A stretch of DNA of 64,000 bases. Source: Gammaproteobacteria bacterium. GTDB lineage: Bacteria > Pseudomonadota > Gammaproteobacteria > Steroidobacterales > Foliamicaceae. Below, piece by piece: positions 12,878 to 28,976 of this stretch. The notes under the pieces are model-generated. The model worked only from the letters and a program-made list of their open reading frames with translations, was not told the DNA's origin and made no database searches. The position numbers were made by a program, and so were the translations under genes. The stretch covers positions 194,403 to 258,402 of the forward strand of contig OY762064.1 of NCBI GenBank assembly GCA_963665145.1. The letters are read 5' to 3'. Each line of letters starts with the position of its first letter. Position 1 is the first letter of the stretch.

Positions 12878-12955
12878 GGGAACGAGGGCTTCCGGCCCTC
12901 GACGAGGACAGGATTTTCTCGCTCCCGGCGTCGAGGGCCGGAAGCCCTCGTTCCC
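12878..12955. repeat. REP-like perfect inverted repeat (27-bp arms, 24-nt loop)
   Basis: Arm 1 is 12878-12904 (GGGAACGAGGGCTTCCGGCCCTCGACG). Arm 2 at 12929-12955 is its exact reverse complement. The element lies in the divergent intergenic region upstream of etfB. Confidence 0.85.
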
Positions 12956-12998
12956 AAGTAGCGTTAGACTATGCGCCGGATTATTGGAGGGAATGCTC

Positions 12999-13751: not shown

Positions 13752-13754
13752 TCA

Positions 13755-14342: not shown

Positions 14343-14902
14343 AAGCTGGAGTCGGGCTCCTTTAGGAATTCCAGTTCTTCGGGCGTTGATCTGCGCCCCA
14401 GCGCTTCGTTGCGGTGCGGGAAGCGTCCGAAGCGCTCGATGATCACCAGGTGTTTGCGGGCCCATTCCACGTCTTCGCCGACGGGGTCCAGGCGTTCTGC
14501 CATTAGCTTCAGACAAAGCCGCTGGTCCCCAAGGTCCTCGCTGTGCTCGAAGGGCAGGTACAGGAACTTGCGCATTTCCCGCGTGACGCCGTCTTGAAGA
14601 TCCAGGCCCGAATCCACCGCGTGCCGGGCTATCTCAAGGGCCTGCCCGTCAGTGGCGAAGGCGCGGGCGTCGTCCCGGAACAGGTTTCGCGGAAACTGGT
14701 CCAGAAGCAGGCATAAGGCTACGCAACCCGTCCCGCTGTCCCGCCACTGATCGTACCTTCCCTGAGCTGCGGCCTGGCAATCGGCAAGGAAACGCCGGCG
14801 GATGGTTTGATCGAACTCGTCGTTTTTTGCAAACCAGAATTCCGGTCCGGAATCCTCGAACCAGAACGTAAGCAGCTCCTGCTGCAGGCCCGCAGGCGTC
14901 AA
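14339..14902 (-). CDS. DUF924 family protein
   Basis: 187 aa. 'WFAKNDEFDQTIRRRF', 'LLLDQFPRNLFR' and 'IIERFGRFPHRN' are hallmark DUF924 blocks. The TTG start overlaps the upstream stop (TTGA). Confidence 0.8.
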   Translation of the reverse strand: MTPAGLQQELLTFWFEDSGPEFWFAKNDEFDQTIRRRFLADCQAAAQGRYDQWRDSGTGCVALCLLLDQFPRNLFRDDARAFATDGQALEIARHAVDSGLDLQDGVTREMRKFLYLPFEHSEDLGDQRLCLKLMAERLDPVGEDVEWARKHLVIIERFGRFPHRNEALGRRSTPEELEFLKEPDSSF

Positions 14903-15918: not shown

Positions 15919-16397
15919 AGCTGTTCCAGCGCCGCTTCAGCCGAAGAACAGCTCAGTCCACCGCCCTCTTCCACGTTCAGTTCGGTAACCACTCCGTCCT
16001 CCACGACTATGGAGAATCTCTGGCCACGCATTCCCATTCCAAATCCCGAGGCGTCCAGTTCAAGTCCCAGCGCCCGGGTGTAGTCTCCGTTGCCGTCGGC
16101 CAGCATCATTACGGAGTCTCCTGCGCCGCCGGCGCGGCCCCAGGCATCCATCACGAATACGTCGTTGACCGCCATGCAGGCGATCTGGTCAATACCCTTG
16201 GCATGCAGGGCATCGGCGTTATTGACGTAGCCTGGAAGATGCTCATTGGAGCATGTCGGAGTGAACGCTCCCGGAACCGAAAACAGGACGACTTTCTTCC
16301 CTTTGAACAGGTCGCCGGCGGAAATGTGCCCGGGACCGCTGCCCGTCATGATGCCGAATCCGCCTTGTGGCATTGCCTGCCCTTTCTCGATGCTCAT
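15915..16397 (-). CDS. peroxiredoxin (Prx5-like / type II)
   Basis: 160 aa. 'VLFSVPGAFTPTCS' contains the peroxidatic Cys motif. Confidence 0.88.
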   Translation of the reverse strand: MSIEKGQAMPQGGFGIMTGSGPGHISAGDLFKGKKVVLFSVPGAFTPTCSNEHLPGYVNNADALHAKGIDQIACMAVNDVFVMDAWGRAGGAGDSVMMLADGNGDYTRALGLELDASGFGMGMRGQRFSIVVEDGVVTELNVEEGGGLSCSSAEAALEQL

Positions 16398-16514
16398 ATT
16401 GATCCTCCCGGAATAAGAAAAAGAGGCGACATTCTAATCCAGGGCGCCATCTACGCCACACACTTGACCCGGGTCCGAAGCCCCTCCTCCCCGTCAACGG
16501 CATACAATCGCGCC

Positions 16515-17360
16515 ATGCGAATGTCGGCCGATGAGTTTCGTAAAGCGCGGAGGAAGTCCGTAACGCTGATGGGGATGTCCGGCGTGGGCAAAACCGTGCT
16601 GGCCAATCGCCTTCCGGCCACGCGTTGGTTCATTTACTCGGGGGACTACCGGATCGGCACCCAGTACCTGCGCGAGCCGATCCTGGACAATATCAAGCTC
16701 CGCGCCATGGAAGTGCCGTTTTTGCGGGACTTGTTGCGCAGCGACTCGATTTACATCGAGAGCAATATCACCGTGCAGAATCTCAGGCCGATCTCCACGT
16801 TCCTCGGCAAGCTGGGCGATTCCGAACAAGGCGGACTGTTGCTCAAGGAGTTTCGGCGGCGCCAGGAACTGCACCGCGACGCGGAATCCCGGGCCATGCG
16901 CGACGTCGCTTCGTTTATCGAGAAAGCCGAGCGAATTTACGGTTACAAGCATTTTGTGAACGACGCCGGCGGCAGCATCTGCGAGTTGGGCGATGCCGAC
17001 GCCCTGAAAACGCTGGTCCGGCACACGGTAATTCTCTACCTGGAAGCCTCCGCCGAAGATGAGGAAAAACTGGTGGAGCGGGCGCGCCGCGACCCCAAAC
17101 CGATGTACTACTCACCCGACTTCCTCAACCGCAGTCTTCCCGAATTCCTGGCCGAGTACAGACTGGACGATATGAGCAAGGCCAGGCCGGACGACTTTAC
17201 GCTGTGGGCGTTCCCAAGGCTCATTGCGCACCGTCGTCCCTTATACGCTCAATTGGCCAGGGAGCACGGCTACTCGGTGCCGGCCCGCGTGGCGCAGCAA
17301 GCGCGCTCCGAAGCCGACTTCGTGGACCTGGTTGCTGACGCTATCGCAGCAGGCAGCTGA
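16515..17360 (+). CDS. P-loop NTPase (shikimate-kinase-like AAA family), function unknown
   Basis: Start at ATG 16515 (MRMSADEF). Walker A is 'GMSGVGKT'. The upstream 249 codons of the track ORF are antisense to the peroxiredoxin gene and were discarded. Confidence 0.7.
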   Translation: MRMSADEFRKARRKSVTLMGMSGVGKTVLANRLPATRWFIYSGDYRIGTQYLREPILDNIKLRAMEVPFLRDLLRSDSIYIESNITVQNLRPISTFLGKLGDSEQGGLLLKEFRRRQELHRDAESRAMRDVASFIEKAERIYGYKHFVNDAGGSICELGDADALKTLVRHTVILYLEASAEDEEKLVERARRDPKPMYYSPDFLNRSLPEFLAEYRLDDMSKARPDDFTLWAFPRLIAHRRPLYAQLAREHGYSVPARVAQQARSEADFVDLVADAIAAGS

Positions 17361-17362
17361 AC

Positions 17363-20362
17363 TCAGTCACCCTGCGTCATTCGAAGCTGCAGGTAGTAGT
17401 TTCGCCCGTACTCGATGCCCTGATGGGCGTCGGCAAAAAACCCGAAATACCGGTCCGCAAGCGGCGCGCGCTTGTCGAACATGTTGTTGACTCCGAATCT
17501 CAAACGCCAGTCGCGATCGTACATATCCCAGTTGTAGTCGAAGGTGCCATTCCAGGTCGTTACCGACGGAATCCAGTACTGGGTGCCGTCGTCGAGGGTC
17601 AGCGAATTCTGGTAGAAATCTCCCAGATGCCGACCCGATATCGATACCCGCAAGGGGTCACGGCGCCAGGAAAGGAACAGTGTTTGCCTGACCTTCTGGT
17701 TGCCGTCCTTATGCAGCAGGTCATCGAACCCGGAAACAGGAATGCTGGCGGGAATGACGCCGTCTTCCTTCGCCGCAAGCAATTCGGCCGCCGTGCCGCC
17801 GGGAACCTGGTCGAACTTGGTCAGGAATGAGGCGAGATAGGTCAGGCTGAAATCACCGGCAGGGGTTTCCAGGAAATAGCGAATACTTGCGTCCCAGCCC
17901 TTCAGTGTCCGTGTATCCAGGTTGGTGTACTTGTCGTCGATGTAGCGAATCAGGCCGGCTGGGCAGATTCCCGCAGCCTCATATATCGCCGCTTCGTCGG
18001 GTTCCAGACCCGCTTCGCGCACCACGGCCGGGTTTCCGACTGAGCCGCTGCAATTGCCCGCACCATTCTGCAGGCGCAGCAGCAGGTCCAGCACCGTGTG
18101 GTTCTCCTCGCCCAACAGCCCGATCGTGTCTTCCTTTTCGATGGACCACCAGTCCAGCGTGATCGTGAGCGTATCCAGGGGCTGAACGGCGATCCCGAAG
18201 GAATAGTTGTCGGATTCCTCGGGATCGAGCAGTTTGCTGCCCTGCGCAACGCGCTGGGTGCTGTTCCTGCAGTCCAGCGTGTCCTGCTCCGGGTCGCCGC
18301 CGTTATTGGCGGCGTAGAAGCAGGCGAAGTCGGTGCGGGTGTTCTGCCGCGCCACGATGACTTCGTTGATGGTGATCAGGTTGGGCGCCCGGAAGGCCTG
18401 CGACCAGGAGCCGCGCAGCAGCACGGTCGGCGCAATCTGCCAGCCTGCCGCAAATTTGCCCACGACCGAACTTCCCACGTCGGAGAAGTTCTCGTAACGG
18501 GCCGCCAACTGCAGGTCGATATTGTTCATCAGCGGCAATTGCAACTCGGTAAACACGGAAGTTACGTTGCGGCTGCCGGAGTTGTCCGGCGTGGGACTGG
18601 AATTGACCACGTCGGAAACGTAGGGATAGGTGTCGCCCTGAAAATCCGTGAAGACGTGTGTTCCATCGAGCCGGGGATCGCGGTCATCCTCGAAGGTCTC
18701 GCGGCGAAACTCCACACCGGCCACACCACCCGCGGGGCCCCAGGGCAGATTAAACAATTCCGGCGTGGAGACCTGGAAATCTCCCATTGCCAGTGTCGTT
18801 GCGCTGTTGCGGTAGACATCCACCAGGGCGCGCTCGATATTGCTGTCCACTCCGCCGCTGAAAGGGTTGTACGCCGCCGGAGTCGGGTCCGACAGGGCTT
18901 CCGCCATGAGCAGATTGGAGACCCGGTTGCGTGTCAGGTCGTCCTTCTCGGCCCGCGACCACACCGCCGCCGCTTCCCAGTCCCACTTGCCGGCCTGGCC
19001 GCGCAGACCCTGGAGCACTCGATAAACGTTGCCGTCGTTCTCAACGACACGGGGAAATTGGTGGTACCGGTAGTTGTCGATCTCCAACTCCAGTCCCTCG
19101 CATGGGACCTGGCTTGGCAGAACCGAATCGGGCAGGCGGTTGGGCGAACCGCACGGTCCGAACGGGTTGTAGTAATTGTCGGCGGCGACTCTCAGCTTGA
19201 CGGTGCTGAAAGAAGCCGAAGCATGCCGAAAGAGATGTGTGTCCGACATGTAATACAGCAGCTCCGAGAAGCTCTCCATGCCGTTCTCAAACTCATGGTT
19301 GACAAAGACGAAGATGTTGCCCCGCTTGAGGTCGGAAGAAAGATCGCGGGTTGCATTGAGGTTGCGGCGATACGTGCCCTGACCGTCTATGCCGCCGCAG
19401 GTGCCGTAACCCAGGTCCCATTGGCAGCGGGGGTCTCCTGCCGGATAGGTTTCGAATTCTCCGCTGCCGTCGGTGAGCACGTTGCGCAAACCGGTACTGC
19501 GGGCGCTGGAGCGAACGTCGTACTGGCCATACAGGGAGTTGGCGCTGTTGTTACGGAATCGCGTATCGCCGGCCCAGGGCGAGTCGGCCGGCACCCGCCG
19601 GCGGAAGTCGGCGTCGGCCCAGCGCTCGTCTTCGTGTGCGCTGATGCGATCACGAACGTAGTAGTTGGCCAGGACGCCGACATGGGTTCGCTCTCCATTG
19701 AAGAAATCGCCCCATTCCAGCGCAATGCGTTGCGTGTCCCGGCTCACGTGGTCGTACGCTCCGTAGCGCAAATAGACCCGCAAACGGTCGATGTCCTTTC
19801 TGACGACGTAATTGACCACACCGGCCACGGCGTCCGCGCCGTAAAGCGCCGATGCCCCGTCCTTCAGGATTTCAACCCGGTCCATGCCGTAAATTGGAAT
19901 CGTCTGCGTGTTTGCCGTGTTTACGGGGACAAAACTGCCGCCGACTTCCTCGGTCTGATAACTCGCGGCGTTCACGACCCGGCGGCCGTTGAACAGCACC
20001 AGTGTGTTCCCGGTACCCAGGCTGCGCAGGTTGAAGGCGCCGATGTCGCCGCGGGCGGAATTCACGCCGCCGCTGATGTTCTCGGCCTCGTTGAAAAAGT
20101 TCTGACCCTGCTCGGGCACGAATTGCAACAATTCATCGCCGGAATCCACGCCCATGGCTTCGATCTCTTCGGCGCCGATAACGGAAACCGGCAAGGCACC
20201 CGTAATGTTGGCGCCCTTGATGTGGCTGCCGGTAACGACGATTTCCTCCATTTCCTGCTCTTCGCCGTTACCTACTGCAGTGTCCTGGGCGAAGCCCGTG
20301 ACGCTGCCGGCGAGAAACAAGGAAGACGCCGACACTGCGGCCAAAGATCTGCATTTCAGCAT
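17363..20362 (-). CDS. TonB-dependent outer-membrane receptor
   Basis: Start at ATG 20362 gives the signal peptide 'MLKCRSLAAVSASSLFLAGSVTGFAQD'. Plug region 'EEIVVTGSHIKG...RVEILKDGASALYGADAVAGVVNYV'. About 1000 aa of beta-barrel-type sequence. Confidence 0.9.
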   Translation of the reverse strand: MLKCRSLAAVSASSLFLAGSVTGFAQDTAVGNGEEQEMEEIVVTGSHIKGANITGALPVSVIGAEEIEAMGVDSGDELLQFVPEQGQNFFNEAENISGGVNSARGDIGAFNLRSLGTGNTLVLFNGRRVVNAASYQTEEVGGSFVPVNTANTQTIPIYGMDRVEILKDGASALYGADAVAGVVNYVVRKDIDRLRVYLRYGAYDHVSRDTQRIALEWGDFFNGERTHVGVLANYYVRDRISAHEDERWADADFRRRVPADSPWAGDTRFRNNSANSLYGQYDVRSSARSTGLRNVLTDGSGEFETYPAGDPRCQWDLGYGTCGGIDGQGTYRRNLNATRDLSSDLKRGNIFVFVNHEFENGMESFSELLYYMSDTHLFRHASASFSTVKLRVAADNYYNPFGPCGSPNRLPDSVLPSQVPCEGLELEIDNYRYHQFPRVVENDGNVYRVLQGLRGQAGKWDWEAAAVWSRAEKDDLTRNRVSNLLMAEALSDPTPAAYNPFSGGVDSNIERALVDVYRNSATTLAMGDFQVSTPELFNLPWGPAGGVAGVEFRRETFEDDRDPRLDGTHVFTDFQGDTYPYVSDVVNSSPTPDNSGSRNVTSVFTELQLPLMNNIDLQLAARYENFSDVGSSVVGKFAAGWQIAPTVLLRGSWSQAFRAPNLITINEVIVARQNTRTDFACFYAANNGGDPEQDTLDCRNSTQRVAQGSKLLDPEESDNYSFGIAVQPLDTLTITLDWWSIEKEDTIGLLGEENHTVLDLLLRLQNGAGNCSGSVGNPAVVREAGLEPDEAAIYEAAGICPAGLIRYIDDKYTNLDTRTLKGWDASIRYFLETPAGDFSLTYLASFLTKFDQVPGGTAAELLAAKEDGVIPASIPVSGFDDLLHKDGNQKVRQTLFLSWRRDPLRVSISGRHLGDFYQNSLTLDDGTQYWIPSVTTWNGTFDYNWDMYDRDWRLRFGVNNMFDKRAPLADRYFGFFADAHQGIEYGRNYYLQLRMTQGD

Positions 20363-20390
20363 GATTCCTACCCCTGGGGAAAACCCAACA

Positions 20391-20418
20391 ATTCTATATC
20401 CTTGTGGCCTGTTTACAA
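20391..20418 (-). promoter_or_regulatory. candidate sigma70 promoter for the TonB-dependent receptor
   Basis: The minus strand reads TTGTAA (20418-20413), a 16-nt spacer, then TAGAAT (20396-20391). It lies in the 58-nt AT-rich gap between the fusion gene and the receptor gene. Confidence 0.35.
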
Positions 20419-20420
20419 AA

Positions 20421-23060
20421 CTATTTGTCGGCCGGCGCCAGATCCGCAAATGCTGCTTGCAGTCCCAGTGACGCCTCGAGAAGTTCCTTGTTGGCACCGT
20501 CCAGCCACGCCTGGTCGCGCGCCAGGGATTCCCGGTGATCGCCAAGCATCCGGGCCACCTCCGTCGGTTGCGGCCCGCCCAGGCCCTTGCGTGCCGCAAG
20601 CATTGAGGCGGGATCCATCGCCCGGCGAACAGTATTGACCGGAACCGGCAGCGGTTTGCCCGTCACCTCCCGGTAGATTTCTCGAAACTCCTCGTCCGAC
20701 AGCGAGCGAGCGCGCCGCTGCTTAGCGCGCGCGTAGTCCGTAAGGGCCGAGGCGTATCCATGAGCGGTGCGAAACGGCAGCCAGGCCTCGCGGACCAGCA
20801 TGTCCGCAACTTCCGTCATGGTGGAAAAACCGCGCCGCAATTCTTCGAGCGCCCGTTCACGGTCCACGCGGAGCAGCCCGATCAGGCGAGCGTACCGACG
20901 GTACATCAGTTCACCTTCTTCAGACAGCTCGAGGATTGGAGTGGCTTCGCGGTAATCGTGCATCCCGGTATTGGTGTTGTGCGCCAGCAGCAGCTGGGTT
21001 TGCGCGCTGCCCAGCACAATGCTGGCCTGGCTCCGCACGCGGTCCAGGGGCCGTGGGTTGCGTTTCTGCGGCATGATCGTGCTGATGCCAACAGCGGACC
21101 GGTCCAGCAAAATCCACGGCCGGGGGTTGTGGTACTGAGTGTGCAGGTTCTCGACCAGCTGGCCGATCGGGACGGCCGAAAGCGCCAGAATGCCGGCAAG
21201 CTCCCTTCTCAGGTCCCCGGACGAAACCAGGTTGGCGTCGTAGCTGTTGTCTTCCGGCCCCGCGAAACCCAGGAGTTCCGCCAGGCGTGGCCGGTTCAAG
21301 GCGAAACCCGAGGTGCCGAGCGCCGCGGAGCCCAGCGGGCTCAGGTTCATGCGGGCGTAGCCCTCGCGATAGCGCTGGACGTCGCGCTCAAGATTGGCGG
21401 AGAACGCCAGCAGGTAGTGCCCCAGCGTGGTCGGCTGCGCCTGCACGCCATGGGTGTAGGCCGGGATCGGTGTGCCGGCCTCCTGTTCCGCGAGCTTCAG
21501 CAGCGCAGCGCGCGAACGCAGTGCGCCTGCCGCCAGCTCCAGCCATCGGTCGCGGATCAGCATGCGGCGAGTGGCGCCGTGGAGGTCCTGTCGCGAGCGC
21601 CCCAGGTGCAGGTCGCTGACACTCTCGCCCGCAAGCTCAATCAGGCGTTCTTCGAAGGGAAGGTAATTGGGTGTTCTCGCTGCGCCCTCGGCTTCCTGCT
21701 CGGCTTGCAGTTGAATGATCCCGCCCGCAATGGTTTCCGCCTGCCGGCGGTCAATCAGGCGTTCCTCCAGCAGCATCACCAATGAAGCCTTGTTGGCTTC
21801 GACGAGATAACAGAAGAAATCCGGGCATTGGGCGCCACGGCGGGCAGCCAGCGCCCCGTCGCCGCCACCCAGAACGGTCACCAGGGAGTCCGCAAGTACG
21901 CCGGCGGTAGCGGTGATTTCAGCCCGGTCCGTGTCGTCACCTGTTTCCACGGTGATGGAAGGCACCCCGAAGCGGCGATAGAAGTAATTCTTCGCGATGG
22001 CGGTTTCCTTCGAAGGGCGCGGCGCTCTTTCGAATTCGTATACCGAGCCGCTGGCCCTGGCCAGGCGCAGCCAGCGGGAGGCAAGAGCCGGTGGACGGGT
22101 CGCGTCCTTCAGCGTGGGAACATAGAAAACGTTGCGCCAGGTGCCATGAAAATCAAGCATCAGGGCTATTTCCCTGCCCTGCTCCTGCAGGCCGTCCACC
22201 AGGTCCCTTACCGCCCGGGTTTCCTTCTGCCTGAACGATCCCCAATCGCGATTGAGGTCGGTGCCGCCCAGGTTGTGCCGCCAATGACCCGCGGCGACTC
22301 CGTCGGGATTGAGGTTGGGTATGACCACGAGGCTGTGTTCGCGATAGAAGCTGCACTTGCCTGAGGCCGCGTCCGCGCAGGCCCTGGCGCGATCCTGCAA
22401 CAACCGTTCGGCAAAGGCGGTGAACATCAGCGCTCCGGGAACTTCGGGTGGATGCTGCCGGCCCAGCAGGAGCAGGTAGCGGGGAGCCTGCGGATCGGTC
22501 TGGGCGGCTTGTATCGAACGGCCGCCTTCGGTTTCTCCAATGCTGCGCCACTTGAGGTCGGGATAGCGATCAGCCATTCTTTTGCGCCACGTCTCGTAGA
22601 AGTCCAGCCCCAGGTTTTCCTGTGCGGACACGAACAGGCCGTCCGCCCCGGGTTGCAGCTCCATCGTGACCCGCCCGTCCTCGTGGGCGAGCCAGTTCCG
22701 TTCCGGCAGGCGAGCCCAATCACTGCCGTCGCTGCTGATCTTCGGCCAATAGCGGTGCCGGCTTGAGGTGTAGCGCAGGGTCACCACGATCGTGCCTTGT
22801 TCATCAGCCTTACTGGGACGAATATGGAACCCGTACCAGGGGCTTGCATTGATCGGGGGAGCGTCCTCGGGCTCTATGGTCAGAATTACGCCGCGCTCAT
22901 TGAATACACGGCAGGCATTCGCCCGCGCACCCTCAAAATCCACTCGAATTTCATAGAGGCCCGTGTCGCACAGCGGAGCGCCTTGCGGTTCCTGACCGTG
23001 CGCGACGGAGAATGCGGAAAAGGCTGCAGTGGCTGCGGCCAGTCTCAGAAGTCGATTCAT
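20421..23060 (-). CDS. exported bifunctional fusion: M14 zinc carboxypeptidase (N-terminal) + argininosuccinate-lyase-like fumarate-lyase-superfamily domain (C-terminal)
   Basis: Start at ATG 23060 overlaps the upstream stop (ATGA). Signal peptide 'MNRLLRLAAATAAFSAFSVAHGQ'. M14 motifs: 'GRQHPPE' (HxxE), 'NPDG', 'LDFHG', 'ITVETG'. ASL-type motifs: 'LGRSRQD', 'AYTHGVQAQPTT', 'ISTIMPQKRNP'. One uninterrupted 879-codon frame. Confidence 0.85.
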   Translation of the reverse strand: MNRLLRLAAATAAFSAFSVAHGQEPQGAPLCDTGLYEIRVDFEGARANACRVFNERGVILTIEPEDAPPINASPWYGFHIRPSKADEQGTIVVTLRYTSSRHRYWPKISSDGSDWARLPERNWLAHEDGRVTMELQPGADGLFVSAQENLGLDFYETWRKRMADRYPDLKWRSIGETEGGRSIQAAQTDPQAPRYLLLLGRQHPPEVPGALMFTAFAERLLQDRARACADAASGKCSFYREHSLVVIPNLNPDGVAAGHWRHNLGGTDLNRDWGSFRQKETRAVRDLVDGLQEQGREIALMLDFHGTWRNVFYVPTLKDATRPPALASRWLRLARASGSVYEFERAPRPSKETAIAKNYFYRRFGVPSITVETGDDTDRAEITATAGVLADSLVTVLGGGDGALAARRGAQCPDFFCYLVEANKASLVMLLEERLIDRRQAETIAGGIIQLQAEQEAEGAARTPNYLPFEERLIELAGESVSDLHLGRSRQDLHGATRRMLIRDRWLELAAGALRSRAALLKLAEQEAGTPIPAYTHGVQAQPTTLGHYLLAFSANLERDVQRYREGYARMNLSPLGSAALGTSGFALNRPRLAELLGFAGPEDNSYDANLVSSGDLRRELAGILALSAVPIGQLVENLHTQYHNPRPWILLDRSAVGISTIMPQKRNPRPLDRVRSQASIVLGSAQTQLLLAHNTNTGMHDYREATPILELSEEGELMYRRYARLIGLLRVDRERALEELRRGFSTMTEVADMLVREAWLPFRTAHGYASALTDYARAKQRRARSLSDEEFREIYREVTGKPLPVPVNTVRRAMDPASMLAARKGLGGPQPTEVARMLGDHRESLARDQAWLDGANKELLEASLGLQAAFADLAPADK

Positions 23061-25456
23061 GGTTTGAAACTCATTTCCATTTCGGTGTCGGCGGCAATTG
23101 CCCGGTCGGAGAACCACCAGTAGCCGATTTCGCCCGAAAGCCAGGTTGGAAGCTGGTCGTTGAGGTGCGGGTCGAACAGCCGCGAGCTGACACCGCCCGG
23201 AATCACCGCCATGACCTTGTCCTCGTCGCCCAGGTCCGCCACGAATCTCAATGAATCGATCACCCGGGGATTGAAGTTGCCCAGGCCCGGAAAGCGCGCG
23301 CGTCCCAGCGTCTCACCGGATCCGCGGCCGGGATAGTCACCGCCGCCCAACAGACGATCCGCCAACTCGCCGGGTACCCAGGGATTGTGGATCTTCAGGC
23401 GGCTCAGGTTTCCCCATTGCCAGGCTTGAGGATCCTCTCCCAACCGTAATGTCAGCACCAACCAGGCGCGGCGGGCCGCTGCGCGGATCATTTCGCCGCG
23501 GTCTTCGATCGCTTCGGTTCGCCGGTTGTCAAACCATTGCGACTTCCCGGCGAGCAACATCCGGTGCAGGCGCTCCTGCCAGTAATAGATGTCCGACGCG
23601 TATTGGCGAACCAGCTGACCGCCCAGCTCGTCCTGGAATACCTGTAGCACCAGGTCCTGCATGATGGCCTGGAACAGTGCCGCGCCGGCTTTGTCCGGTT
23701 CGTCCAGGTAGTTCCAGCCACGCAGGATATCGGCGGCGGCCCGGGTCTCGGGGTCGACCTCCAGGGCCTCTATGAACAATGGCGTGAGGCTGCGGGCCAT
23801 GGGGTTGAGCGTATCGACGATCGCCGCCCAATGGTCTTCGGCGGACAGCACATGCTCGCCGTCGAACAGTTCCTTCATGCGCCGATAACGCCAGGAAGCC
23901 GCCGTGTAGCTGGTCCAGTGGCCGCGAAAATCGCCACTGACCGTACGATGGTTCGCATTGCCCACCCAGCCGCGTTGAGGATTGAGAGAACCGGGTGCCT
24001 GCGCGAACGGCACGAAACCCTGCCAGTCGTCGATCGAATCCACGACCGGCACCGGCAATGAGCCGTCACCCCGGCGCCGCACCGGAACGTGGCCCGCCGT
24101 GAAATGCGCGATATTGCCCTTCGTGTCTCCCACGGTGTAATTAAAGGGGGCGTTGATTTCGCTGATGATCTCCCCGGCTTCCAGGGTGTCGCGCGCCAGC
24201 ATTACCCGCTCGATTCCTACCTGCGGGCCGATGTTCTCCGCTACGCTCCAGCGCAACGAATACACGCGGCCATCGTCGCCGGTGAGCCCATGGTCCGAAA
24301 TGACCGGCCCCCGGCGGGTGTACCGAATTGTCAAAGGCAGTTCCCGGTAACCTCCCGCCGCTCTCCGGTCCCGAACCCGGATGACTTCCTCTACTACCTG
24401 GTACGGAATCGATTCTTCGCCCTGAAGGTAATTCCCGGGCTTTTGCGGGTCGTCCCGTTCGATGAACAGGTCCGCGACATCCGAGTACGCGTTGGTTACG
24501 CCCCAGGCAACAAAGTTCGAGCGCCCTGCCCCCAATCCGGGCGTTCCGGTGCCCGCGGCCCCGACCGCCCGCCACTGGGGAGTGATCAGGCCAACGGGAT
24601 GCCAGATCCCGGGCAGGCGGCGCGCGTCAATGTGCGGGTCATTGGCCACGATGGGGGCGCCGCCGGAGGAACGCGGCCCGGACGTGGCCCAGCTGTTCGA
24701 GCCGTCTGCCGGATCAGGTAGCTGCGGAAAGGTCTCCGGCGCGCCCACCGGCATGGCATTTTCGGCCAGGCTGTAATCCGAGGCCCATTCGCTGCCATCG
24801 TCCGGGTTGACGGTAAGCATGGATATCTCCGCGGCCCGTTCGGAACCCAGGTGATCCACCAGTGCCTGGCTGAGCAGTTCCGTGCGCCAGTTGCCGGTGC
24901 TGTTGATGGCAAGGAACAGGTATTGCGTGGTCATGTCTTCAACGGTGAACGGCGCCGGAGGTTCGGGCGCAAGCCTGACCGCCAGGGGGAATTCTTCCGA
25001 TTGCGTTGCGATATAGGCGTTCACGCCCTGCAGGTACCACTCATGCAATTCCCGGCTCGGTGAGGCCATTTGCTCGGCCCACACCCTCCCCATGCGGCTC
25101 GTTCCGATGACGCGCATCAGGGTGTCGTTGCCGACGCCCGCCTGGCCTATCTGCTCGGCGAGCCTGCCATGAATCAGTTCACGCGTCAGCAGCATCTGCG
25201 AAAGGCGGTCCTGAGCGGTGACGAAGCCCTGAATGCGGATCACGTCGGCCAGCGACTCTGCATAGATGTAGGGTATTCCCTGGCGGTCCCGTTTTACCGT
25301 GACTTCGGCGTCCAGCATGCCGAGGACCATCGGATGTTCAATATCGCGGCCGCGGTCCGGGATATTGCTGCTCTGGAGCCAGGCAAGACCGATTGCCAAG
25401 GCCAGGGCGAACAGCACCACAAGAGCGGCCAGGGCCAGAAGGATTCTTCTCAGCAT
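23057..25456 (-). CDS. penicillin-acylase family (S45 Ntn-hydrolase) protein, copy 1
   Basis: Start at ATG 25456 with AGGAAG 6 nt upstream. N-terminal anchor 'MLRRILLALAALVVLFALALAIGLAW'. 'IPYIYAESLADVIRIQGFVTAQDRL'. The beta-subunit nucleophile context is 'DGSNSWATSG'. Confidence 0.88.
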   Translation of the reverse strand: MLRRILLALAALVVLFALALAIGLAWLQSSNIPDRGRDIEHPMVLGMLDAEVTVKRDRQGIPYIYAESLADVIRIQGFVTAQDRLSQMLLTRELIHGRLAEQIGQAGVGNDTLMRVIGTSRMGRVWAEQMASPSRELHEWYLQGVNAYIATQSEEFPLAVRLAPEPPAPFTVEDMTTQYLFLAINSTGNWRTELLSQALVDHLGSERAAEISMLTVNPDDGSEWASDYSLAENAMPVGAPETFPQLPDPADGSNSWATSGPRSSGGAPIVANDPHIDARRLPGIWHPVGLITPQWRAVGAAGTGTPGLGAGRSNFVAWGVTNAYSDVADLFIERDDPQKPGNYLQGEESIPYQVVEEVIRVRDRRAAGGYRELPLTIRYTRRGPVISDHGLTGDDGRVYSLRWSVAENIGPQVGIERVMLARDTLEAGEIISEINAPFNYTVGDTKGNIAHFTAGHVPVRRRGDGSLPVPVVDSIDDWQGFVPFAQAPGSLNPQRGWVGNANHRTVSGDFRGHWTSYTAASWRYRRMKELFDGEHVLSAEDHWAAIVDTLNPMARSLTPLFIEALEVDPETRAAADILRGWNYLDEPDKAGAALFQAIMQDLVLQVFQDELGGQLVRQYASDIYYWQERLHRMLLAGKSQWFDNRRTEAIEDRGEMIRAAARRAWLVLTLRLGEDPQAWQWGNLSRLKIHNPWVPGELADRLLGGGDYPGRGSGETLGRARFPGLGNFNPRVIDSLRFVADLGDEDKVMAVIPGGVSSRLFDPHLNDQLPTWLSGEIGYWWFSDRAIAADTEMEMSFKP

Positions 25457-25540
25457 GGGCAAACTTCCTGAGAACGCGCGTCCAGGCGGGCCTGCCGTTC
25501 CTGCGCCGGCGCGTGTCCAGCGCAAACGCGTGGCTGGATC

Positions 25541-27934
25541 TCAGGGTGCAAAGGTAAGCTCCTGCTCAGTATTGGAATTGATTGCTTCATCGGAGAACCA
25601 CCAGTAGTTGATTTCTCCTGACAGCCACATCGGCAGCTGGTCATTGAGATGCGGATCAAACAGCCGTCCGCTGACGCCCCCGGGAACGACAGCCATCACC
25701 TTGTCCGGATCGCCCAGGTCGGCCACAAACCGCAAGGAATCGATGGCGCTGGCGCCGAAATAGGGATTTCCGTAGGATCCCCACAGGGTTTCGGATGACC
25801 CGGTACGCGGGAACTCGCCGCCGCCAAGCAAGCGGTTGAGGAAGTCTCCCGGCACGGGTGCGGGGCTTGAGAACCGAGTGGAGCTGAGATCGCCCCAGCG
25901 CCAGTCTCTCGGATCCTTACCCAGGCGTTCCGACAGCTCCGACCAGGCGCCGCGGGCGGCCTCTCCTACCAGGTCGTCCAGGCTTTCGCGCTCCGGCGTC
26001 GAAATGTCATCGAACCAGTCCGACTCGCCGGCAACAAGCATTCTATGCACGCGTTCCTGCCAGAAAGATGGAGAACCTTCGTAACCATGCACGAACCCTC
26101 CCATTTCATCGGCGAAGATCGCATGGATCAATTTGCGGATCATTACCTGAAACAGGGCCGGCGCCGCCAGGTCCGCATCATCATAGTAGTTCCACTCACG
26201 CAGAATGGTTCCTGTAGCCTGCAATTCAGGGTCGCTCTCCAGTGAATCGACCAGGATGGGCGCAAGGGCCTGGGCAAGGGTATTCCGGGTGTCGATGATG
26301 GCCGCCCAATGATCTTCTGCAGTTAGCACCTGGTCATTGTCGAAGAGTTCCAGCATCCGCCGGTAACGCCAGGACGGGGCCGAGTAACTGCTCCAGACAC
26401 CGTCAAAATCGCCTCGCACGGTGCGGTGATTGGCGTTGCCCACCCAGCCGCGCGCCGGGTTCACCACCGAGGGCGCCTCCTCGAAAGGCACCCAACCCAA
26501 CCAGTTGTCCTGCGCGTCCTCGACCCGCAGGGGAATCGCTCCGTCGCCCAGGCGCCGAACGGGAATACGCCCGGACGTAAAGTGGGCGATGTTGCCCCGA
26601 GTATCGGCCACGTTGTAGTTCAGCGCCCCGACAATGTCACGGATCGCCTCGCCCGCCTCGAACACATCGCGGGACAGCATCAGGCGATCAACCCCGATCT
26701 GGCGCCCCAGGATCTCCGCCACGCTCCAACGCAAGGAAACCGTGCGTCCGCTGTGGTCCCTGAGCAGGAAGTCGGAGACCACAGGCCCTCGGCGCGTATG
26801 ACGAATCTCAAGTGGACGCTCACGATACCCTCCCGGAGCGTCCCGATCGCGTATCCGTATGGTTTCGTTGACAATCGTAAACGGCACGGAGCGTTCGCCT
26901 TCCAGATAATGCCCGTCGCGTTCGGGGTCTTCCTCTTCGATGAAAAGGTCCGAAATATCAGCCGCGGAGTTAGTGACTCCCCATGCGATATGACTGGATC
27001 TCCCGACTGCCAGTCCGGGCCAACCCACGCCTGCAACGCCCACGGCCCGCCAATCAGGCGTGATCAGCGCGACGGGATACCAGATGCCTGGCAGCCGCCG
27101 GGCATCCAGGTGCGGGTCGTTCGCCAGTATCGGCGCGCCTCGCGCAGACCGATCTCCGGACATGACCCAGCTGTTCGAGCCCCCGGCCGGTTTGGCGGGC
27201 CGGAGTGCGGCCTCTTCGGGAAACGGCCGCGGCCGGTCATGCGCAAATTCGTATTGCGACGCCCATTGGCTGCCGTCGTCCGGGTTATAACTCAAGAGCG
27301 AAATCTCCGAGGCCTTGGTCCGACCCAACCGGTCCACCAGTTCCTGGGCCAGCCATTCCGACCGCCAGTTTTCCGTCAGATCGTAGGCCTGAAGCAGATA
27401 ATGGCCGCAGATGTCCTCAAGGGTATAAGGCGCAGGCGAGTCTCCCATCAAGCGCACCAGAAGCGGAAATTCCGCCGGTTTCCTGGCCAGGTAGGCATTG
27501 ATACCTTCAAGGTACCATTCATGAAGTTCACGGCTGGGTGATTCCAGGTTGTCGGCGAAGCGCTTCGCCAGCCGGGTGATTTCCAGCACGCGAACCATCA
27601 CATCGGTGGACACCCCGATGGGCCCCAGTGTTTGGGCAAGCCTGCCGTTGGCTGCTTCGCGGGTGAGAAGCAACTGCGTGAGTCGGTCCTGCGCAGTCAG
27701 GTAGCCTTGAATGCGAATCGCGTCGGCCAATGTTTGCGCGTAGATGTAAGGAACGCCGTTGAGATCTCGCTTGACGGTAACCGGCGACTCCAGTACCGGC
27801 AGGGACATGACTTCGCCTGCTGACCCGCCACGCTGAGGAATATTACTGCTGCGGATCCAAAGGAAAGAAAAAGAGGATATCAGAACTATTAATGATATCA
27901 ATATAATAAGAGATATACTAAATTTTTTTATCAA
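25541..27934 (-). CDS. penicillin-acylase family (S45 Ntn-hydrolase) protein, copy 2
   Basis: Paralog of copy 1, roughly 55-60% identical by eye. 'VPYIYAQTLADAIRIQGYLTAQDRL' and 'GGSNSWVMSG'. I place the start at TTG 27934 (IKKFSISLIILISL...), by analogy with copy 1 and because it overlaps the upstream stop as TTGA. The track ORF starts at GTG 28000. Confidence 0.85.
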   Translation of the reverse strand: MIKKFSISLIILISLIVLISSFSFLWIRSSNIPQRGGSAGEVMSLPVLESPVTVKRDLNGVPYIYAQTLADAIRIQGYLTAQDRLTQLLLTREAANGRLAQTLGPIGVSTDVMVRVLEITRLAKRFADNLESPSRELHEWYLEGINAYLARKPAEFPLLVRLMGDSPAPYTLEDICGHYLLQAYDLTENWRSEWLAQELVDRLGRTKASEISLLSYNPDDGSQWASQYEFAHDRPRPFPEEAALRPAKPAGGSNSWVMSGDRSARGAPILANDPHLDARRLPGIWYPVALITPDWRAVGVAGVGWPGLAVGRSSHIAWGVTNSAADISDLFIEEEDPERDGHYLEGERSVPFTIVNETIRIRDRDAPGGYRERPLEIRHTRRGPVVSDFLLRDHSGRTVSLRWSVAEILGRQIGVDRLMLSRDVFEAGEAIRDIVGALNYNVADTRGNIAHFTSGRIPVRRLGDGAIPLRVEDAQDNWLGWVPFEEAPSVVNPARGWVGNANHRTVRGDFDGVWSSYSAPSWRYRRMLELFDNDQVLTAEDHWAAIIDTRNTLAQALAPILVDSLESDPELQATGTILREWNYYDDADLAAPALFQVMIRKLIHAIFADEMGGFVHGYEGSPSFWQERVHRMLVAGESDWFDDISTPERESLDDLVGEAARGAWSELSERLGKDPRDWRWGDLSSTRFSSPAPVPGDFLNRLLGGGEFPRTGSSETLWGSYGNPYFGASAIDSLRFVADLGDPDKVMAVVPGGVSGRLFDPHLNDQLPMWLSGEINYWWFSDEAINSNTEQELTFAP

Positions 27935-28935
27935 GATAATTTCACTTCGAGTTCTCGATCCAGCCCGAAAATCATTGCCAGCAGGGCGACCCGCATCCAC
28001 ATGCCGTTGCGCTCCTGGCGCCAGTACATGACGCGGGGGTCGTTGTCGACCGCGGGGTCAAGCTCGGGGCCTCGCGGAAGCGGATGCATGACTATCGCCT
28101 CGGCCGGAAATTTGGCGAGCTGCTCGGGACCGATAGCGTAAGAGGCGTAATCGGTGCCAATGGTCTCATCTTCGTCGTCATATTCCCACTGCAGCCGGGT
28201 GAGGTACAAGGCGTCCAGATCATCCAGGACATCAGCAAGGGAACTGGTCGATTCGTAAGCCACCCTGTGGCTGTCAAGGTGTTCCAGGATGTCCTGCCCG
28301 ATCTCGAATCCCGGGGGCGCCACAAACCGCAATTGGACGTCTTTGTAGTTCTTCATCAGGTAGCTGAGCGAGCGCACGGTCCGGCCGCGTCGCAGGTCGC
28401 CCATCATCGCTATGGTCTTGCCGTCGATTCCGCCGCGGTGTTCGAAACTGCGCTCCAGCGTATAGATATCCAGCAGCGACTGGGTCGGATGCTGGTCCGG
28501 TCCGCTGCCGGCGTTGATTACCGGAACGGGACGGGGGATGCTGTCCATCAGTTCGGCGGCGCGCGCCGCTTTGCCCCCTTCCGGCGTGCGCATGATGATC
28601 ACGTCCGCGTAGGAACTGAAGGTCCGGATGCTGTCCTCGAAGGTTTCTCCCTTTACCTCGGAGGAAATGGACGGGTTGCGGATTTCGCTGGTCTGCATGC
28701 CCAGGATATGGCAGGCGCTGTTGAAGGACAGAAAGGTTCGCGTCGAAGGCTGCGTGAAATACAGCATGGCGCGGCGATTGGGGGCCAGTTTCTGCAGGCT
28801 GTTTGAGCCGGCGCGCGACTTTGCAAGTGTTCGTATGTGAGTGGCCAGCCGGCACAGGCGGTCCAGCATTTGCCGGTCGAATTGCCGGGTATCTGTAACG
28901 TGGAAAAGCCCGCTGTTTCCGATCATGCGCGCCAT
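27931..28935 (-). CDS. aspartate carbamoyltransferase-like protein (divergent PyrB-type catalytic chain)
   Basis: 334 aa. 'QPSTRTFLSF', 'VKGET', 'IIMRTPEGG', 'DQHPTQSLLD', 'GDLRRGRTVRSL', 'LYLTRLQWEY' and 'HPLPRGPEL' align block by block with E. coli PyrB motifs. STRTR is changed to STRTF and RVQKER to RLQWEY. Confidence 0.8.
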   Translation of the reverse strand: MARMIGNSGLFHVTDTRQFDRQMLDRLCRLATHIRTLAKSRAGSNSLQKLAPNRRAMLYFTQPSTRTFLSFNSACHILGMQTSEIRNPSISSEVKGETFEDSIRTFSSYADVIIMRTPEGGKAARAAELMDSIPRPVPVINAGSGPDQHPTQSLLDIYTLERSFEHRGGIDGKTIAMMGDLRRGRTVRSLSYLMKNYKDVQLRFVAPPGFEIGQDILEHLDSHRVAYESTSSLADVLDDLDALYLTRLQWEYDDEDETIGTDYASYAIGPEQLAKFPAEAIVMHPLPRGPELDPAVDNDPRVMYWRQERNGMWMRVALLAMIFGLDRELEVKLS

Positions 28936-28976
28936 TATCCTTGAAGCGGCAGGCCAAGGGTAAACTTTCCGCCGCC

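Follow-up and report, generated by a model that had tools for sequence, protein, structure and literature searches.

EDDS lyase, an amine lyase whose reaction on N-substituted aspartate yields fumarate, is the nearest characterized relative of the C-terminal domain of a fusion protein encoded in the window, the 64,000-nucleotide stretch of gammaproteobacterial DNA that was analysed here. Profile searches with the product of the fusion gene (20421..23060, minus strand) return Peptidase_M14 and AstE_AspA_cat domains followed by Lyase_1 and ASL_C2. The lyase domain, an aspartase/fumarase-superfamily C-N lyase at residues 410-879 (20421..21833, minus strand), scores 212.7 bits against EDDS lyase (6G3D-I/6RX8) in phmmer versus 127 bits against the best argininosuccinate lyase (ASL), and its best four Foldseek matches are all EDDS lyase, with 31-32% identity and TMt values of 0.82-0.83. 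Moreover, its score of 219.7 against TIGR00838 (argH) is under the cut-off of 279.5. ASL is therefore not the best description of this domain, which the original prediction had called "ASL-type". Residues S660, S489/R490, and Y703 align with S280, S111/R112, and Y320 of EDDS lyase, and the positions corresponding to these residues, and to N288, are conserved in the family. Asp-290, the contact for the EDDS distal amine, is replaced by arginine, however, in 118 of 120 family members, compared to 1 of 58 other ASL-like proteins, so that EDDS itself is unlikely to be the substrate; the pocket carries family-specific changes (NPR, GMHDYR). Resemblance to EDDS lyase rather than ASL weakens the earlier proposal of an Asp/Arg-containing substrate and shifts the reading to an N-substituted aspartate that would lose an amine. 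Neither the lyase domain nor the acylases discussed below have a characterized homologue above about 32% identity.

The preceding part of the fusion protein (residues about 23-400; 21861..22994, minus strand) comprises a beta-sandwich N-domain and an M14 zinc peptidase domain (PF00246, PF24827), and the AF2 model of the fusion places strands at residues 36-145 ahead of an alpha/beta fold. The M14 profile matches PDB entries 4a37, 3l2n, 4b6z, and 3k2k over residues 35-309, and the HxxE/H/E and NR motifs are invariant among the aligned family members (H203-P-P-E206, NPDG, DLNRDW, H305, E372). Although this part resembles the bacterial "cytosolic" carboxypeptidases, it differs from them in its predicted export. 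The fusion begins with a Sec-type signal peptide (residues 1-22; 22995..23060, minus strand; MNRLLRLAAATAAFSAFSVAHG/Q), hydrophobic N-terminal leaders being present in all 11 aligned members of the fusion family, and its three conserved cysteine pairs (C31/C50, C228/C236, C412/C417) would fit an oxidizing compartment in which disulfides are predicted to form.

The fusion gene lies within a string of five minus-strand genes (17363-28935) that encode an aspartate carbamoyltransferase (ATCase), acylase A, acylase B, the fusion, and a TonB-dependent outer-membrane receptor (TBDR); the co-directional layout, junctions, and domain assignments first proposed are all confirmed by the sequence and by profile searches. 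Genes overlap by 4 nt at two junctions, those between ATCase and acylase A (cTTGA, 27934-27931) and between acylase B and the fusion (ATGA, 23060-23057), where the acylase B stop overlaps the fusion start. An 84-nt spacer between the acylase genes (25457..25540, minus strand), in which AGGAAG stands 7 nt ahead of the acylase B start codon (ATG, 25456), gave no promoter-like or terminator-like match, and a 58-nt spacer precedes the TBDR gene (20363..20420, minus strand). The sigma-70-like sequence noted in the original prediction for this latter gap is present (TTGTAA-16-TAGAAT), but it matches only 9/12 consensus positions and is not statistically notable, matches of that grade numbering 4 in the region versus 2.3 +/- 1.6 in shuffles. 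Site and gap together make separate transcription of the TBDR possible. On the minus strand, none of the four junctions showed a terminator-like site, and the cluster genes may be co-transcribed. The cluster encodes no inner-membrane transporter, binding protein, or regulator. In agreement with the original prediction, inspection reveals export signals in four of the five products: in addition to the fusion, both acylases start with an apolar stretch of 23 residues, and the TBDR N-terminus reads ...LAGSVTGFA/QD, with a TonB-box-like EEIVVTGS after it. No export signal is present in the ATCase. We infer that the acylases, fusion, and TBDR are exported, and the M14 domain, lyase domain, and acylases, in all of which the catalytic motifs are intact, are predicted to be active.

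The TBDR (17363..20362, minus strand; 999 aa) has Plug and TonB_dep_Rec_b-barrel domains and matches none of the siderophore, B12, or SusC equivalogs. A CarboxypepD_reg N-domain, as described for Oar-type proteins, was not detected in this receptor by domain search. Only the gene for the exported M14::C-N-lyase fusion and the TBDR gene that immediately follows it are kept together in relatives down to about 40% identity, and this pair forms the conserved core of the locus. This adjacency is seen in the window clade, in lineages at 64, 55, 49, 44, 43, and 42% fusion identity, and in the metagenome loci L098 and L103. A TBDR lies within 6 kb of the fusion in 12 of the 13 loci with full flanks; one fusion lineage (P0057, locus L001) has no adjacent TBDR. 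In L002, L003, L005, L098, L103, and L170-L174, the gene immediately after the fusion or lyase encodes a homologue of the receptor with 57-89% identity. In L005, the lyase is encoded separately and bears a signal peptide of its own (MKSLLLLLGMTIPSWVQGA/EPCEDFYC); its gene is followed by a TBDR of the same family (57% identity) and then by two gamma-glutamyltranspeptidases (GGT), of which one starts with a clear signal sequence and the other has a hydrophobic stretch at its N-terminus. A signal peptide is also present in an acidobacterial lyase (L006, 41% identity). For exported M14 relatives that stand alone (about 40% identity, mostly with lipoboxes), 14 of the 15 loci with full flanks contain a TBDR homologue no more than 6 kb away; homologues near such genes are 36-67% identical to the receptor. 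Also encoded in these loci are DASS dicarboxylate carriers, DAO oxidoreductases, and PGA_cap and Amidohydro_3 proteins. The proposed link between the TBDR and exported enzymes that cleave amide or C-N bonds is non-random, and the suggested logic of a polysaccharide-utilization locus (PUL) gains strength from sister loci where this TBDR family is found beside other exported or amide-related enzymes. Seven more distant lineages, however, have the fusion with the TBDR only, lacking acylase and ATCase; the five genes do not form one conserved system.

Closer to the window, the five-gene order, the conservation of which was offered as a check on the prediction, is kept in six loci with fusion identities of 66-100%. 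L085, L087, L089, L090, and L172 have all five genes, and L088 has the same order with a single acylase, acylase A being missing. In L087, L088, and L172, too, the acylase and fusion genes overlap or nearly do so. Much of what is conserved within the clade is plain synteny, since the flank downstream (hypothetical, redoxin, ADH, DUF924) is retained as well. The S45 Ntn-hydrolase assignments of acylase A (25541..27934, minus strand; N-terminal anchor or uncleaved signal) and acylase B (23057..25456, minus strand; N-terminal anchor) hold, both proteins being full-length matches to PF01804 (Penicil_amidase; E 3.8e-168 and 7.2e-163, respectively). The nucleophile motif GGSNSW is present in acylase A, and DGSNSW in acylase B aligns with the catalytic serine. 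The two proteins are 58% identical, their genes contain direct DNA repeats spaced about 2480 nt apart, and on sequence comparison they are tandem duplicates. D-succinylase, and not PvdQ or an AHL acylase, is the nearest relative of the two acylases: the closest PDB match of acylase B is Cupriavidus D-succinylase (7EBY/7EA4; 151 bits, versus 86 bits for penicillin G acylase), and its PvdQ equivalog score is 20.9 against a cut-off of 950. The tandem pair is found only in the window clade, which is related to Candidatus Foliamicus, and acylases accompany the fusion in one clade only; the wider acylase family (47-53% identity) is present in many marine Gammaproteobacteria. A TTG start for acylase A has support in the anchor and the motif WxxSSNIPxRG, which precede the gene-caller's Met65 and are conserved both in acylase B and in relatives. 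The AT-rich 5' segment encoding the Ile/Lys/Ser-rich anchor of acylase A (27845..27934, minus strand) has about 28% GC compared to 62% for the genome, low GC (0.28-0.38) being kept in six clade members, and contains a promoter-like TTGATA-16-TATCCT (27901->27874).

On balance, we favor an interpretation in which the locus, placed behind an ordinary pyrB, functions as a module for the TonB-dependent uptake, and breakdown in the periplasm, of either an anionic amide or an N-(dicarboxyethyl) compound. The TBDR would import a scarce anionic compound with amide-linked and amine-linked dicarboxylate units, from which the membrane-anchored acylases would remove an N-acyl group, possibly of the succinyl or glutaryl type. 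The M14 domain would then hydrolyse a bond beside a free carboxylate, acting on a C-terminal, probably acidic, residue or on an N-acyl acidic amino acid, and the fused lyase domain would eliminate the remaining amine from N-substituted L-aspartate to give fumarate, with a serine base of the SS-loop as in EDDS lyase. Fumarate and amino-acid products would enter the cell via general inner-membrane carriers encoded outside the cluster. This order of steps, like the substrate class, is our suggestion. In the window clade, an exported S45 acylase would have been recruited directly upstream of the fusion, with overlapping stop and start codons, and later duplicated in tandem in most members.

Alternatively, pyrB, the acylases, and the fusion-TBDR pair might be functionally independent neighbours joined by synteny alone in a streamlined genome, the acylases serving, for example, as quorum-quenching AHL acylases or as deacylases of acylated siderophores. 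Every fusion-TBDR locus outside the clade lacks acylases and ATCase, the acylase family is widespread by itself, the flanking genes are syntenic as well, and the 84-nt gap and weak promoter-like sites also speak for such a mosaic. We nevertheless consider it unlikely, because the tight acylase B-fusion junction is kept at 68-80% fusion identity, the four downstream products are all predicted to be exported to the same compartment, and the PvdQ equivalog score is negligible. In addition, L005 pairs the same lyase-TBDR combination with two copies of another Ntn-amidase family, GGT, which suggests that an amidase is repeatedly needed for function.

The module might also serve to acquire metal rather than carbon or nitrogen, the TBDR importing the metal complex of an aminopolycarboxylate or opine-type metallophore (EDDS-, aspergillomarasmine-, or polycarboxylate-like), and the periplasmic lyase and peptidase destroying the ligand and so freeing the metal. 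Metal chelates are the classical cargo of TBDRs. (S,S)-EDDS, the substrate of the lyase domain's nearest characterized relative, is a natural zincophore, and both the lack of a catabolic inner-membrane carrier in the cluster and the DASS/CitMHS-type di- and tricarboxylate carriers in sister loci can be counted in favor of this proposal. Even so, metal acquisition seems decidedly doubtful in view of the arginine at the Asp-290 position and of a receptor that has about 1000 aa rather than 650-800 aa and matches no siderophore-receptor equivalog. Moreover, no Fur-/Zur-type regulator, metal ABC importer, or reductase is located nearby, and we know of no natural ligand of this kind from this habitat.

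The original prediction had placed all five genes in one pathway for an N-acylated, Asp/Arg-containing molecule, with the ATCase-fold paralogue acting on a ureido- or carbamoyl-aspartate intermediate. In its favor, the genes are co-directional and tightly packed, with the TTGA overlap between ATCase and acylase A, their order recurs across the clade, and even contigs of just 11.5-26 kb carry both ATCase and fusion. The ATCase heading the string (27931..28935, minus strand; alternative start at 28926 per gene call; PF02729, OTCace_N, and PF00185, OTCace) is, however, probably an ordinary, cytoplasmic housekeeping pyrB, and a passenger rather than a pathway member, although it may be co-transcribed with the downstream genes. 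It scores 251 bits against the pyrB equivalog TIGR00670 (cut-off 237), its closest PDB match is Arabidopsis PYRB (6YPO, 223 bits), and it keeps all of the catalytic motifs (STRT, R(105), HPTQ, GRT, TRLQ, HPLPR). Its family, including the STRTF variant, is found at 66-70% identity across many Gammaproteobacteria, and a 68% identical orthologue (P0184) adjoins ruvX, a yqgE-like DUF179 gene, and gshB with no acylase nearby. The original prediction had named a sole housekeeping pyrB as part of an outcome that would count against the five-gene pathway, and these features point well in that direction. Since this predicted cytoplasmic enzyme never accompanies the fusion outside the window clade in the loci examined, and the other four products carry export signals, such a pathway is very improbable. 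Finally, it is scarcely credible that the receptor, despite its size, its lack of a nutrient-receptor equivalog match, and its constant adjacency to an exported enzyme, instead resembles Myxococcus Oar in helping such enzymes across the outer membrane to act extracellularly, a TBDT being needed for protease secretion in a case documented in PMC6434023, because no CarboxypepD_reg N-domain was detected in it, many stand-alone M14 relatives are lipoproteins, and sister loci have the inner-membrane carriers and cytoplasmic oxidoreductases that import would predict.

What endures of the original prediction is the TBDR-enzyme link, the gene order within the clade, and the PUL-like logic; the five-gene unit, the pathway role of ATCase, and the ASL and PvdQ/AHL identities do not. 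For this uncultured marine gammaproteobacterium, the uptake and breakdown module that we favor would combine an outer-membrane import channel with neighbouring exported enzymes for the cleavage of amide and C-N bonds.

Profile searches bear out the original prediction of five co-directional ORFs on the minus strand between positions 28935 and 17363, together with all of its domain calls. An aspartate carbamoyltransferase (ATCase; 27931-28935, minus strand) composed of OTCace_N and OTCace is followed, on the same strand, by two full-length S45 'penicillin amidases' (acylase A, 25541-27934; acylase B, 23057-25456), an 879-residue fusion protein (20421-23060) in which an M14 peptidase part precedes Lyase_1 and ASL_C2, and a TonB-dependent receptor with plug and beta-barrel domains (TBDR; 17363-20362). 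The four predicted junctions also stand on reading the sequence: the ATCase and acylase A genes overlap at cTTGA, an 84-nt spacer with AGGAAG located 7 nt 5' of the ATG separates the two acylases, acylase B meets the fusion at ATGA, and a 58-nt spacer containing TTGTAA-16-TAGAAT precedes the TBDR. Moreover, the export signals attributed to four of the five products are confirmed at the sequence level, with N-terminal hydrophobic segments on both acylases (23 apolar residues in each), the fusion (a Sec-type leader, ...SVAHG/Q), and the TBDR; the N-terminus of the ATCase has no hydrophobic export segment. The promoter-like match before the TBDR scores 9/12, and the region contains 4 such matches compared with 2.3 ± 1.6 in shuffled sequences, so that this match carries little weight. 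Promoter and terminator scans gave counts that are not above those in shuffles, and favor neither an operon nor independent units. No terminator-like sites separate the five genes, no regulatory RNA is matched in Rfam at E ≤ 1 within 15-31 kb, and a repeat search around the cluster found no mobile-element boundaries, the tandem duplication of the acylases being the sole repeat.

Searching with the fusion listed 120 clusters (at the 90% identity level), down to 41% identity, almost all of them full-length at 860-940 aa. Gene order is kept in related genomes: five loci (L085, L087, L089, L090, and L172; 73-100% identity in the fusion domains) show a divergent GTPase followed by ATCase, acylase, acylase, fusion, and TBDR, and a sixth (L088, fusion identity 68%) has a single acylase. 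The idea that all five genes form one conserved system, however, fails outside this clade, where the fusion keeps the TBDR alone. Lineages at 64, 55, 49, 44, 43, and 42% fusion identity, as well as metagenome loci L098 and L103, have the TBDR directly downstream and neither acylase nor ATCase at the fusion locus, and in the lineage of one homologue (P0057) the TBDR is also absent beside the fusion. Counting the loci that have 6 kb or more of sequence on either flank, some near-duplicates included, 12 of 13 fusions have a TBDR homologue no farther than 6 kb away, as does the single lyase-only locus. The proposal of an undescribed uptake and degradation system thus survives in part: its enzymes are TBDR-linked and would act on amide and C-N bonds, but conservation centers on only two of the five genes. 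A mosaic of unrelated neighbors, with which the loci lacking acylase and ATCase would agree, we regard as unlikely.

A split version of the system is present at 9950-18197 of locus L005 (CP170502.1, a complete Pseudomonadota MAG chromosome), in which a stand-alone exported lyase (56%), a TBDR (57%), and two gamma-glutamyltranspeptidases lie in a row. These transpeptidases are Ntn amidases and parallel the S45 acylases; no other independent sign is as good that the lyase-TBDR pair works together with an amidase. Among the matches listed, a lyase-motif profile scan of contigs returned mostly ordinary ArgH genes (beside lysA in Alphaproteobacteria), together with an ASL-like family of Firmicutes that has ABC transporter, PIG-L, and ROK genes as neighbors, and the only informative loci in this set were L005 and an acidobacterial locus, L006. 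No paper combining these components was found in open-access text, and none there dealt with 'Foliamicus'. Other genes near the fusion-TBDR pair in different lineages include an ankyrin-repeat protein and a histone-deacetylase-family amidohydrolase (L174, 15672-17242), a tannase-family esterase (L170, 15782-17320), and, in L173 (21985-22613 noted), a canonical ASL gene and a ClpP-like protein with Abhydrolase_11, the latter two also in L103; such neighbors may be further accessory hydrolases.

The TBDR fits a TonB-dependent transporter, expected to have a signal peptide, TonB box, plug, and 22-strand barrel domain, in that it matches PF07715 (59 bits) and PF00593 (103 bits) and has a leader and EEIVVTGS. 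No curated siderophore, B12, or SusC subfamily is matched: all 17 NCBIfam matches fall far below their cut-offs and cover mostly the plug alone (for the SusC signature, 21 against a cut-off of 46.2), and PDB matches are likewise confined to the plug, at E 2.5e-8 or weaker. Glycans, siderophores, and cofactors are the familiar targets of TonB-dependent utilization loci. The window locus resembles both Bacteroidota PULs and proteobacterial TBDR-linked loci in setting a TBDR beside exported degradative enzymes, but its enzymes cut amide and C-N bonds, SusD and glycoside hydrolases are missing, and the window version contains no regulator and no inner-membrane carrier. It is therefore not a PUL in the strict sense, there being no SusD-like or CAZyme genes in the 17-29 kb region. 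At the TBDR C-terminus (17363-17392), a short acidic tail (…LQLRMTQGD, …RVTGD) replaces the usual terminal aromatic of outer-membrane barrels in many family members; other TBDR relatives end in …RF or …SF. A convergent 281-aa ORF (16515-17360, plus strand), whose stop lies 2 nt from that of the TBDR, gives only a sub-threshold AAA_16 match and is kept downstream of the TBDR in L085, L087, and L088. Elsewhere in the window, a stretch of lower GC content (0.535-0.57) at 48485-56203 holds a second, unrelated TBDR locus, whose genes for a 972-aa TBDR, a beta-helix/pectate-lyase-like protein, KduI, a LacI regulator, and a hypothetical protein suggest utilization of the uronate or pectin type; the similarity of this 972-aa TBDR to the one at 17363-20362 is at plug level only.

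The lyase domain of the fusion (residues 410-879), which begins at a conserved C-x-D-F-[FY]-C motif at residue 412, had been labeled an ASL. It does share the ArgH fold, with Lyase_1 and ASL_C2, and covers positions 32-454 of the 455 in the argH model, but it misses the cut-off of that model (TIGR00838; 219.7 against 279.5), has NPR in place of ...KxNPD, and is predicted to be exported; in addition, a canonical ASL is encoded separately and close by in at least one relative genome, that of L173. Its closest solved relatives are not ASLs but the EDDS lyase of Chelativorans sp. BNC1 (6G3D-6G3I and 6RX8; PMC6973171), with 212.7 bits to 6G3D-I/6RX8 compared to at most 127 bits for any solved ASL. 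The fold agrees, EDDS lyase taking the top four Foldseek places for the AlphaFold model (pLDDT 80; 31-32% identity, TMt 0.82-0.83) with E 4e-26 versus 5e-20 for ASL. On these comparisons the ASL label should give way to 'exported EDDS-lyase-like C-N lyase'; public records, where they name the fusion protein, call it just 'lyase family protein'.

In EDDS lyase, Ser280 is the base, Ser111/Arg112/Ser281 hold the beta-carboxylate, and the amine is positioned by Asn288/Asp290 with Tyr320' (PMC7586795). The fusion residues S660 (the SS-loop Ser), S489/R490, and T/S661 align to Ser280, Ser111/Arg112, and Ser281, respectively, and the residues aligned to N288 and Y320 are conserved. The same chemistry, release of fumarate from an N-substituted L-aspartate, would be expected. 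The amine pocket is not retained as a full set, however, because the position of D290, which places the distal amine of EDDS, is Arg in 118/120 family members, as NPR or SPR. A family-specific GMHDYR is found in 117/120, whereas NPR occurs in only one of 58 other ASL-like proteins compared, which is also exported. We infer an anionic group on the amine that leaves the native substrate, and this putative charge, with the change of D290 to Arg, makes EDDS itself an unlikely substrate. The possibility that the lyase domain is an inactive binding module can be rejected because all catalytic positions are invariant. Metal acquisition by destruction of a chelator might be proposed, EDDS being a zincophore found in nature, but features of a metal regulon were not seen and we consider this explanation quite improbable.

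EDDS lyase is a soluble cytoplasmic enzyme, whereas the window lyase appears to be exported, with its own signal peptide or behind an exported M14 domain, and is genetically tied to a TBDR. Export is supported by N-terminal leaders in all 11 aligned members of the fusion family, by three conserved Cys pairs that would fit an oxidizing compartment, by the separate lyase gene of L005, the signal peptide of which ends directly before C-x-D-F-Y-C, and by the signal peptide of the L006 lyase (41% identity). To our knowledge, no exported member of the aspartase/fumarase superfamily has been described, and a limited search of open-access text found no exported fumarase-superfamily enzyme.

The fusion is laid out as a signal peptide, a beta-sandwich with the M14 domain, and the lyase domain; strands at residues 36-145 of the AF2 model form the N-terminal beta-sandwich that precedes the catalytic domain, and PF18027 is found in the sister protein at locus L145. 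PF00246 scores 46.6 versus 21.6 on the fusion, and the M14 profile places query residues 35-309 on residues 10-274 of PaCCP from P. aeruginosa (4a37) and also matches 3l2n, 4b6z, and 3k2k, which are bacterial 'cytosolic carboxypeptidase' (CCP)-like enzymes. These solved structures have low identity to the window M14 domain (E 1e-21, profile), but share the order of beta-sandwich then M14 and the features that we checked: zinc ligands HxxE...H, the catalytic Glu, and the carboxylate-binding Asn-Arg, represented by H203/E206, H305, E372, and N270/R271, show no variation among 11 sequences of 42-100% identity. Unlike the cytosolic CCP-like enzymes, the window protein is probably exported, as judged by the signal peptides or lipoboxes of the fusion family and of each of the 10 stand-alone relatives that were inspected. 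In addition, its M14 domain is fused to a lyase, and sister loci have an Amidohydro_3 fusion or a lipoprotein. We know of no physiological substrates for the bacterial CCP-like enzymes.

Relatives of the M14 domain number 269 at E ≤ 1e-30 in a 50%-representative library, most of about 400 aa and a minority of about 880-930 aa. When metagenomes were scanned with the M14 part alone, the stand-alone relatives (about 400 aa, about 40% identity) were found to have signal peptides in nearly all cases, and often lipoboxes, with a TBDR homologue (36-67% identity) within 6 kb in 14 of the 15 loci having full flanks. They belong to a module of the order DUF4886, TBDR, (PGA_cap or DASS Na+/dicarboxylate carrier), LysR, DAO-type flavoprotein, and M14, followed by (Amidohydro_3), (NhaC-type carrier), (cytochrome c), and (Orn/DAP-type decarboxylase), the Amidohydro_3 domain being sometimes fused to M14, as in L145. 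This arrangement is seen in L102, L130, L145, and some 60 further loci from metagenomes (L091-L168). The stand-alone M14 locus is an uncharacterized marine catabolic module in its own right, and the enzymes that accompany it suggest a chemistry of acidic, D-amino-acid, gamma-glutamyl, or dicarboxylate compounds. A single TBDR family accompanies the M14 domain family in nearly every case, and the stand-alone loci therefore make the window fusion one branch of a broad exported CCP-like peptidase family that is paired with that receptor family.

Acylases A and B are 58% identical, and their tandem repeat is visible in the DNA at about 2480 nt. PF01804 is matched in both from position 1 to 674 of 675, and the Gly-Ser-Asn nucleophile is kept in each, with GGSNSW and DGSNSW aligning to the catalytic Ser of D-succinylase. 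The comparison with PvdQ/AHL-type acylases made in the original prediction finds negligible backing, the equivalog NF051460, with its cut-off of 950, giving only 25.7 bits for one and 20.9 bits for the other; the closest solved relative is instead the D-succinylase of Cupriavidus sp. P4-10-C (7EA4/7EBY), at 151 bits compared with 86 bits for penicillin G acylase. The window acylases share with D-succinylase the full-length S45 fold, the Gly-Ser-Asn motif, and an N-terminal export sequence, but the match to it and to other S45 enzymes (penicillin G, glutaryl-7-ACA, and PvdQ/AHL acylases) is so remote that specificity is not transferable, and their N-terminus resembles an anchor that stays uncleaved more than it does a classical signal peptide. 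PvdQ-like siderophore maturation is not supported by the equivalog scores, and is conceivable as an analogy. The acylases, which have a wider family of relatives at 47-53% identity, are a lineage-specific accessory. Immediately behind the pyrB stop, the first 90 nt or so of acylase A (27845-27934, minus strand) have a GC content near 28%, compared with 62% for the genome, and encode its Ile/Lys/Ser-rich anchor, whereas the anchor of acylase B is GC-rich and composed of Ala/Leu. Low GC content (0.28-0.38) in this 5' segment is kept in six clade genomes, and a TG-extended promoter-like match lies within it; the segment could be an internal promoter, a UP-like element, or a coupled-translation feature.

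With regard to the first gene, the ATCase matches PF02729 (E 4e-33) and PF00185 (E 1e-25), passes the TIGR00670 equivalog (251 against 236.95), and falls under the cut-off of NF002032 (220 against 263). Among solved structures it comes closest to the ATCases of plants, archaea, humans, and E. coli, and PSTRT, MR, HPTQ, GRTVRS, TRLQ, and HPLPR all align with Arabidopsis PYRB (6YPO). The catalytic set checked (S-T-R-T, Arg105, H-P-x-Q, Arg167, Arg229/Gln231, and the HPLP loop) is invariant in the family alignment A3. By domains, motifs, and equivalog score the protein therefore fits PyrB, from which it differs in having STRTF, common to the whole orthologous family, where STRTR is usual, and in heading, unusually, a string of genes for exported enzymes. 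Homologues are 81-95% identical within the window clade, the 81% example being named Candidatus Foliamicus sp. with a 90% cluster that takes in the copy on the L088 contig, and 66-70% identical to a very large gammaproteobacterial set annotated as ATCase (7021 matches at E ≤ 0.001). The Foliamicus match puts the window close to Ca. Foliamicales. One orthologue at 68% (P0184) adjoins ruvX, a DUF179/YqgE-like gene, gshB, and hemC in a neighborhood with neither acylase nor TBDR; in Pseudomonas, pyrR-pyrB-pyrC' is flanked by ruvX-yqgE-gshB. A search of the window for a canonical pyrB site found no homologues of ruvX, DUF179, gshB, or hemC. The identity pattern and the context of P0184 fit a vertically inherited housekeeping pyrB, which most likely, on this comparative evidence, heads the string by chance in the window clade.

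A full five-gene pathway that includes the ATCase, as originally envisaged, might draw on the tight junction with acylase A, TTGA in the window; in L087, L088, and L172 the two genes likewise lie within a few nt of each other or overlap by as little, and this closeness may reflect co-transcription. The protein, however, passes the PyrB equivalog, is cytoplasmic, and is not seen beside the fusion outside the window clade, so that it is probably ordinary PyrB and the five-gene pathway is highly improbable. The pyrB case is a caution for annotation in that tight gene packing does not equal pathway membership. Upstream, only about 41-50 bp separate the ATCase start (28926/28935) from that of the divergent GTPase (MMR_HSR1 and TGS; called start about 28977), leaving very little space at 28936-28976 for two divergent promoters, and this divergent pair is kept throughout the window clade. 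Finally, the notion that the TBDR serves Oar-like secretion rather than uptake is extremely improbable in our estimation.

Anatomy, intact catalytic motifs, export signals, and TBDR pairing are all direct observations, and from them we infer substrate, step order, and regulation. We lean slightly towards TBDR uptake and periplasmic breakdown of an anionic amide or N-(dicarboxyethyl) compound. The substrate would be imported through the TBDR, after which the anchored S45 acylases, as an addition specific to the window clade, would take off an N-acyl group. The M14 domain might then hydrolyze a bond beside a free carboxylate, and the fused lyase, using its Ser base, would eliminate fumarate from the resulting N-substituted aspartate; the presence of both domains in one protein suggests that they perform consecutive steps on the same molecule. 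Products would enter the cell via carriers encoded elsewhere. Parts of the evidence are consistent with amino-acid or peptide conjugates of the N-succinyl or N-(1,2-dicarboxyethyl) type, with gamma-glutamyl or poly-acidic peptides, with peptidoglycan-derived D-amino-acid peptides, and with polycarboxylate or aminopolycarboxylate metal ligands.

We know of no TBDR locus centered on an exported fusion of a zinc peptidase with a C-N lyase that releases fumarate, and the subfamily of exported lyases, like its receptor, is widespread and entirely uncharacterized. A bolder and, as we see it, rather doubtful reading is that the proteins bearing NPR and GMHDYR constitute a new class of exported C-N lyase in the aspartase/fumarase superfamily, which would act in the periplasm with a dedicated TBDR to dismantle natural aminopolycarboxylate-type molecules. 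In these bacteria and many marine relatives, the substrates would be built on N-(1,2-dicarboxyethyl) groups, for example EDDS- or opine-like metal ligands and N-succino-peptides. If true, this would amount to new periplasmic enzyme chemistry and a hidden ligand pool in marine or host-associated habitats. Identity of the substrate would give a function to a widespread marine gene module, would make available a naturally exported relative of EDDS lyase, itself a useful biocatalyst, and could reveal an unrecognized class of dissolved organic nitrogen or metal-binding ligand.
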